A program made the translations under genes and the position numbers. Under the pieces are notes generated by a model. It was not told the DNA's origin. It did not search any database and saw only the letters and a list, made by a program, of their open reading frames with translations. From the NCBI GenBank assembly GCA_965216315.1, contig CBDCFN010000016.1, positions 1,408,001 to 1,472,000 of the forward strand: 64,000 nt of DNA. Reading direction: 5' to 3'. This DNA comes from a bacterium (GTDB lineage: Bacteria > UBA10199 > 2-02-FULL-50-16 > JAJFLM01). The stretch's first letter is position 1; every line of letters begins with the position of its first letter. Positions 27,886 to 30,475 of this stretch are shown here, piece after piece.

Positions 27886-28716
27886 TCATTGAAGAAAAAT
27901 TTTCTTCCCGAGTTGGGCGGCAATTTCCCGTAACGATGCACCGCGTTCAAACTCGATAACAACCGTCTGAGATCGTGATTTACGGCTAAAAGGAAAGCGA
28001 TGCAACTCCAAACGCGCATTCCAACCCACCGCACTCACCCGAAGGGCCCATAATTGCCGCCAGCCCTGTCGGCGCGCGTAGGCAATTGCTTGCTTATGAA
28101 TAGAGGCCAAAACCTGGTGCGACTCCGGAGGCGCTGGTATGCCAACGCGGCGCGCTCCACCAAATAATTGGATAAAGGCAGGCGGATAAATATCGGCAGG
28201 CAGCTGCAACTGGGGCCATTCGAAATGAAGTTGTTGCATGATGCGACGCACCGCTTTTTGCTGTCCCCGCGCCTGCTGGATCAGCGCCGCCAAAACATTC
28301 GCGGCCAGACGCGCGCCTTGCCTGTGTTCACCCTGTTTTGCCCGCTCGACGATTCGAAGCGCCTTACTGAATTGCAGCTGATAGTAAGCGTCCCAGGCTG
28401 CCTTAAGTTCCTGTGGTGCTGACTGAGGGCGAAGCAAGTGTATAGACTGACGTGAGCTTTCACGTTGAGGACCAACAACGGTCAGCTCGATCGAGTGTCT
28501 ACGAAAATAACGTTGTAGCTCCTGAGCCAACCCGTTGGCCTCTGCTTGCCACTTCATTTGATCGACAAAAACGAGTAGTCCCGCGACATCTCGCTGCGAG
28601 CCGGCAACTGAAATTCTGCCGAGCGCCAACAATCCTGCCAACACGATCAGCGAGACACCGCAAAGCGTCCTAAATTGAGACAGTCGCGTCTGAGAATAAG
28701 TCGATTTTAGCTTCAA
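27886..28716 (-). CDS. Hypothetical exported/membrane-anchored protein
   Basis: 276-aa ORF with N-terminal hydrophobic segment. Confidence 0.55.
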   Translation of the reverse strand: MKLKSTYSQTRLSQFRTLCGVSLIVLAGLLALGRISVAGSQRDVAGLLVFVDQMKWQAEANGLAQELQRYFRRHSIELTVVGPQRESSRQSIHLLRPQSAPQELKAAWDAYYQLQFSKALRIVERAKQGEHRQGARLAANVLAALIQQARGQQKAVRRIMQQLHFEWPQLQLPADIYPPAFIQLFGGARRVGIPAPPESHQVLASIHKQAIAYARRQGWRQLWALRVSAVGWNARLELHRFPFSRKSRSQTVVIEFERGASLREIAAQLGKKIFLQ

Positions 28717-28788: not shown

Positions 28789-28805
28789 CTGGCATCGGCC
28801 CTGCA
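28789..28805 (+). promoter_or_regulatory. Sigma54 (-24/-12) promoter
   Basis: CTGGCATCGGCCCTGCA = GG-N10-GC; IHF-like box at 28748-28764. Confidence 0.65.
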
Positions 28806-28818
28806 ATAGCGAAACAAC

Positions 28819-29016
28819 ATGCCCGTGCCAAAACTCATCAAGTCCGTCCGTCGTCCCCAGCCGACCAAAACCCAAGTCGCTGCGGTCGCAACCAATCCGT
28901 ACGAGCAAAAACTGCGCCAGCGCGCAAGTGATTTGACCGCAACCGAACGTTTCGATGAAGCGTCACGGACTATTCGACAAATTCAACAAATCACACGACT
29001 GACTCAACCTATCTAA
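28819..29016 (+). CDS. Small basic hypothetical protein upstream of the VWD-like gene
   Basis: 65-aa ORF ending just before the RBS of 29033; no clear RBS of its own. Confidence 0.4.
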   Translation: MPVPKLIKSVRRPQPTKTQVAAVATNPYEQKLRQRASDLTATERFDEASRTIRQIQQITRLTQPI

Positions 29017-29032
29017 CCTTAAGGAGAAATAT

Positions 29033-30475
29033 ATGCCGCCCGCTTCCGTCAGTTCAGAAATTCAGCACCAAATCAAAAAAACGCTTATTAAAGAAACGAC
29101 GACGACAGTCCAAACGCAGGTCCCTTCCTTTGCCCCACAATACTCTCATAACACGCGGAGTCTACACCGCTATCAACATGTCATCGAGGGCGGCGTCTCT
29201 CATACATGCAAAGTAGCCATTCCACCGTTGCCAAAAATCAACGGCCGCACAGTGCATGAAGTTTGGCCGACAACCAGCACGATAGCGGCCAATGAAAAAG
29301 CCTCCGCAACCGGCGACCCACACATTAAGGGTGGAGATGGCGGACGGTTTGATTTTCAAGGTCGTCCCGGACGCGTCTACAATCTCTTGAATGATTCGGG
29401 ACTGCAGCTCAATGCCAAATTCAGAGCTTGGTTGGGTGCTGGAACCGCTATCAGCGAGGTCGGCCTGACCGTAACGGGTCGAGGTGGATATTCCCGCGTC
29501 ACCATGCAAACCAAAGTCGGACGCCAACTCGAAATAAAGATCAACGGGCGCCGCCTTTTACCGGGACAAAGCACACGACTGGCCGATGGCGGCACCCTTC
29601 ACCTCAGCAAAACCGGCAAGTCAGTCTCCATCCGCACCAGAGAAGGCTACCGCACCCGAGTCCACGTTAAAGGAAACGGCCTCCGTGCTCATCTTGATGT
29701 TCATATCAGCAGTCCGCGCCAAGGCGTCGCACGAGATGGCCGCATGCCCGGTGGTCTGCTGGGCCATACCTTCGACAAAGGAAAAGACGCGCGACATGGC
29801 GCTAAAGGTCGGGGGGCTCAAGGGGAAGGTGCCATCGATGGACACTATACAGATTACGAAGTTCTGGGCGGACTTCATGCCCGGCCAAAAGCAAAAATCA
29901 CCAAGGCAAAGCTGGCGCCGACCACCAGACCCATTGGACCTGTCCATCGCCACTATCTTGGCGACACTCAAAAAACCGAATTCAATGAATTCAACCGAAC
30001 TGAGCTTCAAGAGACATGGCGACAGATCACGCAACAAATGACGGAATCAACCCTCATTCAAAATACACTTAAGCGGAAGCAAAATATTCAGCGGCAAACG
30101 CGTAAAACAGAACGCTTACTCATGGCCGCACTCAACAGTGGCAACATGGATCTTGCCGTTATCATGCTGGCCAGCATCGAAACGCAGCTTGCCAATGACG
30201 TCACGAGTGGCCTTGTCAAACAAATCCACACCCTACAAAAACAACGTCAGTCCCTCTCATCACAGATGGCTAAGCTCGGCAACAAAGGCAAAGATGCCAG
30301 CAAGTTGAGCAGTCTGAGTACGCAGGCCCAGAATATTGGAACGGAGATCTCCTTGCTCCAGACCTTTCTTCAAGATTCGATGTCCAGCAAACGCAACACC
30401 CAGGAATTTGCGAGTAATTGGATACGACAGAGTCATGAAACGACGCGGTCGATTATTCAGAATATTGGCCGGTAA
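29033..30475 (+). CDS. VWD-like domain protein with T3SS filament/needle-like helical C-terminus
   Basis: AAGGAG RBS; 'GDPHIKGGDGGRFDFQG...YNLLND..LQLNA.F' VWD-like start; C-terminus 'SKRNTQEFASNWIRQSHETTRSIIQNIGR'. Confidence 0.6.
   Translation: MPPASVSSEIQHQIKKTLIKETTTTVQTQVPSFAPQYSHNTRSLHRYQHVIEGGVSHTCKVAIPPLPKINGRTVHEVWPTTSTIAANEKASATGDPHIKGGDGGRFDFQGRPGRVYNLLNDSGLQLNAKFRAWLGAGTAISEVGLTVTGRGGYSRVTMQTKVGRQLEIKINGRRLLPGQSTRLADGGTLHLSKTGKSVSIRTREGYRTRVHVKGNGLRAHLDVHISSPRQGVARDGRMPGGLLGHTFDKGKDARHGAKGRGAQGEGAIDGHYTDYEVLGGLHARPKAKITKAKLAPTTRPIGPVHRHYLGDTQKTEFNEFNRTELQETWRQITQQMTESTLIQNTLKRKQNIQRQTRKTERLLMAALNSGNMDLAVIMLASIETQLANDVTSGLVKQIHTLQKQRQSLSSQMAKLGNKGKDASKLSSLSTQAQNIGTEISLLQTFLQDSMSSKRNTQEFASNWIRQSHETTRSIIQNIGR

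Follow-up and report, generated by a model that had tools for sequence, protein, structure and literature searches.

Non-flagellar type III secretion systems (T3SSs) outside the classic pathogens are usually termed needle-less. The question of which proteins they export, and through what conduit, is raised in concrete form by a single gene, P0001, in a stretch of DNA from a bacterium of the GTDB lineage UBA10199: the 480-amino-acid product joins a von Willebrand D-like (VWD) domain with a GDPH motif to a helical C-terminus that recalls the ends of T3SS needle subunits, and it has to be asked whether such a protein belongs to the T3SS of its genome. The stretch, referred to here as the window, comprises 64,000 nucleotides (nt) of contig CBDCFN010000016.1 (G000:C16:1408001-1472000), part of a 2.96-Mb assembly (GCA_965216315.1) that is 98% complete. 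A search for sequencing runs containing this genome returned no RNA run, four DNA runs from a single study and, from another, one run with a small share. The main new result is that the C-terminal module of P0001 has paralogs within the T3SS cluster of the same genome, which on sequence evidence ties the module to that cluster.

The gene occupies the longest frame at its place (29033-30475), is preceded by a strong ribosome-binding site read directly from the letters, and has 37 database matches to its product, some 20 of them full-length at 35-57% identity. The gene is real and conserved, and every string quoted in an earlier inspection of the letters alone (the sequence-only reading) was found in P0001. 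A scan of P0001 against Pfam and NCBIfam returned no family. An AlphaFold2 model built with 20 sequences contains a beta domain at residues 89-226, where the predicted local distance difference test (pLDDT) is about 88, and long helices at residues 322-369, 372-415 and 419-479. The features of the gene are the following.

29021..29026, + strand: ribosome-binding site AAGGAG, strong, 6 nt 5′ of the ATG
29033..30475, + strand: main gene P0001, stop codon included, 480 amino acids
29033..29296, + strand: residues 1-88, Ser/Thr/Pro/Gln-rich, poorly conserved N-terminus
29297..29887, + strand: residues 89-285, predicted VWD-fold beta-sandwich domain (Foldseek and PDB sequence searches)
29312..29323, + strand: GDPH (Gly94-Asp95-Pro96-His97), candidate autocleavage site between Asp95 and Pro96
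29984..30472, + strand: residues 318-480, three-helix C-terminal module that defines the family and is kept to the last residue
30287..30472, + strand: residues 419-480, the final helix, which ends ...ASNWIRQSHETTRSIIQNIGR and shows homology with the C-terminal helix of P0095, a protein of the T3SS cluster

The C-terminal module and the type III secretion cluster

The module is confidently folded when modelled alone (AlphaFold2 with 67 sequences, pLDDT 89.5). A search with residues 301-480 alone against 1.84 billion cluster representatives retrieved 60 proteins at E ≤ 0.001, 44 of these at E ≤ 1e-10. Their lengths span 55 to 591 amino acids, and in all 60 the module forms the extreme C-terminus, without a tail. 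The domain that stands N-terminal to it is, judging from these alignments, a swappable passenger: it is VWD-like in some members, a true DUF1521 domain in P0070 and RTX-like repeats in others (locus L012, and P0048 with a HemolysinCabind match at E 6.7e-4), and it is nearly absent from members of 150-270 amino acids such as the syntenic 245-amino-acid ortholog in locus L011. The family is phylum-specific. Database entries carry the product name “hypothetical protein”, and the public source names, for this family as for that of P0095, are uncultured “Deltaproteobacteria bacterium”, “Pseudomonadota bacterium” or simply “bacterium”. A peptide-pattern scan of the contigs found four loci only.

Within the genome the paralogs of P0001 surfaced with profiles only; a motif scan and phmmer, run with the three parts of the protein against the 15,177 open reading frames (ORFs) of the genome, returned P0001 itself alone. 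A combined module profile run against the same ORFs retrieves exactly six, namely P0001 and five consecutive genes of the T3SS cluster (C16:362938-371710), which encode, in this order, proteins of 491, 460, 624 (P0093), 601 (P0092) and 298 (P0094) amino acids. The 491- and 460-amino-acid ORFs lay outside the training set of the profile and are matched at E 2.8e-12 and 4.2e-12, and P0001 is retrieved at E 8.1e-6 by a profile of the P0094-family C-termini alone. When the module profile was run across the phylum, a weaker second match in this genome (E 8.8e-7) turned up inside the cluster, and a local hmmsearch confirmed it as P0092 (E 1.6e-6). P0092 and P0093 share nothing except their C-terminal 133 amino acids (35% identity, E 2e-25), and hhalign aligns the module family with the P0094 family over 121 columns, that is, the whole module, with a probability of 96.3% and E 1.6e-9. 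With five of its six carriers in this genome encoded inside the T3SS cluster, the module is tied by paralogy to the apparatus.

That apparatus, whose absence from the genome had been named in advance as grounds for giving up the idea of type III export, is present. A single FHIPEP (SctV) gene at C16:339 kb is surrounded by genes for two FHA/YscD-type (SctD-like) proteins, SctJ, a sigma factor and a FliG_C-like protein, and for SctL, SctN, a YscO-like protein (SctO), SctP (FliK/HpaP-like), FliM-/FliN-like proteins (SctQ-like), a FliO-like protein, SctR, SctS and SctT. Upstream of the five module genes lie sctRST and then a 717-amino-acid ORF, two TPR genes flank P0094, and the module array with the TPR genes spans G000:C16:362938-372364 (L005:3938-13364). 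By analogy this layout resembles a translocator/tip operon: such operons of classic injectisomes include the genes for their chaperones, and in the Shigella cluster used for comparison ipgC lies next to ipaBCD. Among the 93 genomes of the phylum, 17 have cluster-type module genes in tandem arrays. In eight of these the array is on the contig of sctV, at a distance within 35 kb in seven and of 125 kb in one, and in the other nine the array and sctV are on separate contigs; the position of the array at the T3SS is conserved across several families of the phylum.

The apparatus genes are otherwise scattered across the genome. The sctU gene is at C16:805026-806048, 465 kb from the other T3SS genes, and both secretin matches lie outside the cluster, the only strong one (C16:974670-975164, in a 989-amino-acid frame) being 600 kb away. 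Flagellin_N and Flg_bbr_C had no match in the 98%-complete genome. Two cluster genes, a FliG_C-like one above the cut-off (L003:12908-13915, G000:C16:351908-352918; E 1.1e-6) and a FliO-like one within the non-flagellar cluster (L003:19036-19362, G000:C16:358036-358365), thus represent components of the flagellar type in surroundings of the injectisome type, although the genome has no match to flagellin or to rod/hook proteins.

A second conserved protein of the cluster bears on the likeness of the P0001 C-terminus to needle subunits.

G000:C16:347385-347936 (L003:8385-8936), + strand: P0095, 183 amino acids, no Pfam match, ending ...SNILKAKHDTEMAQVRNFRVT

P0095 consists of a Gly/Ala/Ser/Tyr-rich N-terminal part and a C-terminal helix, and its gene lies between a SctD-like gene and sctJ, which is the sctF/sctI position; in Shigella, mxiH and mxiI lie between mxiG and mxiJ. 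It stands next to sctV in 68 of the 93 genomes of the phylum, and its 174 relatives in the large database are all unnamed. Aligned with hhalign, the module matches the P0095 family with a probability of 88.5% (E 2.7e-6), and the C-terminal 62 columns of the module match it end to end with a probability of 95% (E 3.5e-8); the P0094 family matches it as well (69%, E 4.3e-5). The P0095 family in turn aligns with the single sequences of EscF (59.5%, E 9e-5) and MxiH (39.7%, E 3e-4, up to the last residue), the best of nine T3SS references, the other seven of which gave E > 0.05. Against an alignment of 120 needle sequences of the Mxi/Prg type, the C-terminus of P0095 scores 23.1, which none of 100 column shuffles reached (maximum 17.3), and the module merged with P0095 scores 21.5, again reached by none of 100. 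P0095 is thus a candidate divergent SctF/SctI. P0094 is more weakly a candidate for a divergent needle or rod protein; its own matches to PF09392 (E 0.047) and PF17001 (E 0.1) are weak, and the one sub-threshold match in a whole-genome PF09392 scan (E 0.14) lies inside it. With these candidates in the cluster, it may be premature to call the system needle-less.

The needle-like ending that the sequence-only reading attributed to P0001 holds at the level of a motif. P0001 and the SctF needles (MxiH/PrgI, PF09392) both have a helical C-terminus kept to the last residue and share S-N-x-[VI]-[KR]-x-x-x-[DE]-x-x-x-[AS]-I-I-Q-N in register, with six identities to MxiH in 18 ungapped positions, and the Mxi/Prg-type consensus agrees; EscF and EspA, however, end differently, and BLASTP of P0001 against MxiH gave nothing at the C-terminus. 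The wider claim of a SctF-like C-terminus is not supported by any direct Pfam, PDB-profile or fold match; homology can be traced through P0095, so that the module is linked to SctF only through the intermediate P0095 family. In size and build the proteins differ as well: SctF is a two-helix hairpin of about 80 amino acids (83 in MxiH, 73 in EscF), in contrast to the 480 amino acids, three-helix module and added globular domain of P0001. In the ESM-Atlas the clusters nearest to the module are unnamed; the closest of the named ones carry EspA (0.92), DUF720 (0.91), LcrV (0.90), T3SS effectors of a chlamydial family (0.88) and T3SS_needle_F (0.87), with recognition below the tool’s own mark, and are to be taken as a lead only.

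The VWD-fold domain and the N-terminus

The middle domain had been called VWD-like from its GDPH opening and a later string, GLLGHT...IDGHYTDYEV, which spans residues 241-277, and the fold was borne out by structure and sequence searches. Foldseek with the beta domain returned the VWD domains of MUC5AC, MUC2, VWF, FCGBP and RGMB at E-values from 2.3e-6 to 1e-3 (43 chains at E ≤ 0.001, with 145-175 aligned columns and a root-mean-square deviation of about 3.5-4), and PDB sequence searches led to the VWD domains of FCGBP, at E 5.4e-7 with the single protein and 1.1e-8 with a profile, aligning the GDPH of P0001 to the GDPH of five FCGBP VWD repeats. The modelled fold of the middle domain is that of VWD. 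The VWD domains of MUC2, MUC5AC, FCGBP and RGM are folded like that of P0001 and likewise open with GDPH, and for several eukaryotic VWD domains autocatalytic cleavage at GD/PH is known. Unlike the eukaryotic proteins, P0001 is bacterial, has no cysteine in the domain, no C8/TIL companions and no signal peptide, and is fused to a secretion-linked helical module.

P0001 is matched at the Pfam cut-off neither by PF00094 (VWD) nor by PF07481 (DUF1521/MIIA). Because sub-threshold matches to both appear among the 20 full-length orthologs, to DUF1521 in seven (best E 0.001) and to VWD in five (best E 7.8e-4), the domain is best placed, on sequence similarity, between the two families. This placement brings in a T3SS precedent that the sequence-only reading overlooked. 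One paper (PMC6506597) describes the MIIA/DUF1521 domain as cleaving itself after the Asp of GDPH upon binding calcium, and reports it from the T3SS-secreted proteins NopE1 and NopE2 of Bradyrhizobium and from VIC_001052 of Vibrio coralliilyticus; P0001 thus has in common with these proteins a GDPH domain linked to a T3SS. MIIA is described as acidic and disordered without calcium, whereas the domain of P0001 is basic (32 K+R against 16 D+E in residues 89-285, cysteine count zero) and confidently VWD-folded in the model. P0070, a member of the module family, carries a true DUF1521 domain (E 1e-17, 65.1 bits where the cut-off is 23.6) with 11 K+R and 23 D+E; in a BLASTP comparison of P0001 with P0070 the module is matched at E 1e-17 and the GDPH region at E 4e-4 only. 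The NopE proteins are not known to carry the C-terminal module.

By analogy with these domains, the GDPH of P0001 may be a site of self-cleavage between Asp95 and Pro96; the motif is present in 25 of the 67 family members. VWD-type GDPH domains are in this way linked with the self-cleaving MIIA domain of rhizobial and Vibrio T3SS proteins, which suggests that type III substrates have repeatedly come to carry GDPH modules able to process themselves. A literature search found no paper that pairs a VWD domain with type III secretion, and for bacterial GDPH autocleavage PMC6506597 was the one relevant paper. The T3SS-linked family combines a shared module that is itself undescribed with a GDPH passenger related to a known effector domain, and it has no Pfam or NCBIfam model.

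The same type of domain also occurs in bacteria apart from the module. P0018, P0023, P0029, P0031, P0034 and P0037, with the source labels Myxococcota, Cyanobacteriota and Pseudomonadota, contain a GDPH/VWD-like domain as tandem copies between GSGDD-type repeats, on its own, or alongside dockerin (PF00404). This VWD-type module is thus widespread in bacteria and lacks annotation.

Residues 1-88, in which S, T, P and Q make up 39%, have a pLDDT under 50 and vary among relatives. As had been noted, there is no Sec signal: the N-terminus is polar and disordered, without a Sec-type hydrophobic core, and a hydrophobic run of at least eight is absent from the first 45 residues in 66 of 67 family members, the sole exception (P0084) being a fragment. 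We infer for this region a putative export signal and chaperone-binding region. A short motif, G-T-[IV]-C-[LMI]-P, is found at residues 57-66 and in relatives such as P0002 (56-61) and P0039 (57-62); it is kept in 11 of the 67 members, directly before the passenger domain or the module, is often preceded by Y..L..G, and holds the only cysteine of many members. It was considered as a lipobox and rejected, given that no signal peptide precedes it and that its position -1 is unfit.

The role of P0001 and competing explanations

Taken together, these comparisons lead us to a reading on which we are evenly divided: P0001 would be a member of a phylum-specific family exported by the T3SS, perhaps as a distal or filament subunit. 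Its parts differ in strength, in that export linked to the T3SS is probable and a structural, polymerising role is possible but stays somewhat on the doubtful side. In this proposal P0001 would leave the cell through the T3SS by way of its unfolded N-terminus. The module would serve as a shared assembly or docking domain that places the proteins carrying it on the outside of the cell, at the distal end of the apparatus, where they would act like a filament, tip or cap, its three helices packing with like modules or onto a conduit made of P0095. The VWD-fold passenger would be exposed outside the cell, where it may bind a surface ligand and may cut between Asp95 and Pro96 upon meeting extracellular calcium. 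What speaks for assembly over simple cargo is that the module is conserved to its last residue, that its helix is homologous to a SctF-like one, that many members are close to module-only and that the paralogs form a series with one shared end.

Parallels can be drawn with known systems. EspA, Bsp22 and the tip proteins (LcrV, IpaD) share with the proposal the concept of a coiled-coil protein added distally to the T3SS conduit. Flagellar axial proteins offer an analogy in that they too are paralogs with common terminal helices and otherwise varied domains, and their genes accompany those of a type III export system; they share both ends, however, whereas the module family shares the C-terminal part only, and there is no Flg_bbr_C or flagellin relation in the genome. 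A further parallel is the “needle-less” T3SS* of Myxococcus xanthus, which, according to PMC10849154, is non-flagellar, lacks recognised needle and translocon genes and a dedicated cluster secretin, as is the case here, and is required for prey lysis. The present work supplies concrete candidates in one such lineage, namely the module family (six genes here, 60 public representatives) and the conserved cluster protein P0095 with its needle-like C-terminal helix. More speculatively, and with little likelihood in our estimate, the T3SS of this phylum might build an appendage of its own, in which P0095 forms the conduit, the module paralogs extend or cap it, and P0001 is a distal, self-cleaving adhesin. 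If so, P0001 would present a calcium-triggered VWD-type adhesin to a prey or host surface, and filaments built by type III export would then have a third architecture, in addition to the flagellum and to the injectisome needle that bears a tip or an EspA filament.

A number of results weigh against P0001 as a distal subunit of the T3SS. The five cluster paralogs count as about one event because they form a tandem array, and the co-occurrence of module and T3SS is uninformative because 91 of the 93 genomes of the phylum have FHIPEP; the module is found in 40 of the 93 at E ≤ 0.001, and strong matches to P0001 in 28. The P0001 gene shares a contig with the T3SS cluster, but lies 1.07 Mb from it, away from the cluster as had been assumed, in a housekeeping neighbourhood (DsbD, DisA-like). 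No dedicated secretin was found within the T3SS cluster, which leaves passage through the outer membrane unexplained. Direct likeness of the module to SctF, EspA, LcrV or IpaD is at best marginal, with no Pfam, PDB-profile or fold match. In Pfam, P0001 and 44 relatives gave no T3SS family except one LcrV match at E 0.071, and PF09392 in particular had no match in P0001 (E ≤ 1) or in the 44 relatives (E ≤ 0.1). With hhalign, all probabilities against EspA, EscF, IpaD, MxiH, MxiI, IpaB, IpaC, EspB and EspD were at most 1.8% (0.9% for the single MxiH, 1.8% for EscF, 0.3% for EspA of E. coli O157, 0.1% for IpaD). A profile search of the PDB with the module gave as its best match a tRNA-synthetase coiled coil (E 0.043), Foldseek against the pdb set gave generic coiled coils only (best E 0.17), and the top VIA-align scores (Z 11.9-11.5) were tied among unrelated coiled coils that include HP0958 (Z 11.9), CT398 (Z 11.7), the N-terminal coiled coil of IpaB (Z 11.7), ESCRT-III, chemoreceptors and SMC arms. 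Set against the needle alignment by itself, the C-terminus of the module is marginal (score 18.7, probability 9%, E 0.0035, in register, with one of 100 shuffles reaching it), and the link from P0095 to SctF is itself weak, with neither PF09392 nor PF17001 matching at E ≤ 10 among 24 P0095 members. As to the passenger, the middle domain is opposite in charge to the strongly acidic MIIA domain, and GDPH has been lost in 5 of the 20 full-length orthologs; cleavage is therefore not essential to the family.

Several other explanations can be envisioned for the same protein. P0001 may be a soluble T3SS effector, with the module read by TPR chaperones or the sorting platform, or acting in the target cell, and with the GDPH domain as a calcium-triggered self-processing module as in NopE1. 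The DUF1521/MIIA precedent is indeed an effector, the passenger domains vary as they do in effector families, the gene stands apart from the cluster like those of many effectors, and the missing fold or profile likeness of the module to needle, filament and tip proteins is what an effector would lead one to expect. However, known systems have their signals for T3SS export and chaperone binding at the N-terminus, the end-to-end conservation of the helix and its homology to the P0095 C-terminus fit an assembly interface better, and many members, at 150-270 amino acids, have little beyond the module; we regard an effector as unlikely on balance, albeit with a chance that deserves to be taken seriously. 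A different route of export, for example type I with a C-terminal signal, the coiled-coil domain being shared for another function, would account for the RTX-like repeats before the module in P0048 and L012, for module-free GDPH domains with GSGDD-type repeats or dockerin (P0018, P0023, P0029, P0031), and for a conserved C-terminus readable as such a signal. This is improbable in view of the five other module genes, all of which belong to the T3SS cluster, an arrangement that recurs across several families of the phylum, and of the difference between a conserved three-helix domain of 160 amino acids and the short, poorly conserved signals of type I substrates.

Still less probable is an intracellular role, in which P0001 would be a coiled-coil regulator or export chaperone of the HP0958/CT398 kind, linking sigma-54 with type III export. 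A sigma-54-type promoter motif does precede the gene, and HP0958 and CT398 are the top-ranked non-significant structural neighbours (Foldseek E 0.17 and 0.28; VIA Z 11.9 and 11.7), but numerous unrelated coiled coils score as high, modules of the VWD and MIIA types act outside the cell or are secreted, and the C-terminal module is homologous to the SctF-like helix of P0095. That P0001 might be the needle subunit itself, an enlarged SctF, is suggested by its ending, SNWIRQSHETTRSIIQNIGR, which matches SNTVKVIKDVDAAIIQNFR of MxiH in register, and is disfavoured to the point of being barely credible. P0001 has no PF09392 match, is six times the size of SctF with a three-helix module of some 160 amino acids, and is encoded outside the cluster; its strong matches are confined to 28 of the 93 genomes, as against a T3SS in 91; and P0095 is a better candidate within the cluster.

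Promoter, upstream frame and neighbouring genes

Two further features lie immediately upstream of P0001, and the gene would be transcribed from the first together with the second.

28790..28805, + strand: sigma-54-type motif TGGCATCGGCCCTGCA (GG-N10-GC), 243 nt 5′ of the P0001 ATG
28819..29016, + strand: small upstream ORF, 65 amino acids, predicted helical hairpin

A sigma-54 promoter is plausible on the strength of this motif. Of 14 distinct ortholog loci, six have a motif of the same class at a conserved distance of 205-262 nt 5′ of the gene; among the eight loci without it, one has no upstream sequence. Matches to TGGCAY-N5-YTGCW number 107 in the genome, against 11.4 expected from base composition, and most of these sites lie 30-100 nt 5′ of long ORFs. 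This pattern points towards a sigma-54 regulon of very large size, such as myxobacteria have. Sigma-54-type sites are also found in the T3SS cluster, before the 460-amino-acid gene and before P0093, but the promoter class is too common for P0001 to be linked with the cluster on this ground. The T3SS cluster ends with the gene of a sigma-54 activator that has an FHA domain (L005:13425-14819, − strand).

The small upstream ORF, which matched no family in Pfam, belongs to a set of frames of 48-80 amino acids that occupy the corresponding position in 12 loci and have a core of about 35 amino acids in common (L..LR.RA......GR...A.R..RQI...Y). If transcription begins where the sigma-54 motif predicts, the ATG of the ORF would follow the start by about 3 nt, as would suit a small leaderless protein or a leader that is translated; the product may act as a partner or chaperone, or the ORF may be such a leader.

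The divergent neighbour (27886-28716, − strand) encodes 276 amino acids. The N-terminus of this protein resembles a signal anchor, its one TPR-like match is weak (T7SS_EccA1_N, E 0.0088), and the gene has no synteny in L011 or L012. This match is no basis for type VII export, the host being a diderm with a T3SS, and the weak LXG and DUF5344 matches (E 0.0086 and 0.00097) that could suggest WXG/LXG-like export were likewise set aside as chance coiled-coil/TPR likeness. Downstream of P0001 lie the DsbD and DisA-like genes, which are syntenic in L011 and L012; because of this synteny the locus is taken to be a stable chromosomal site rather than an island.

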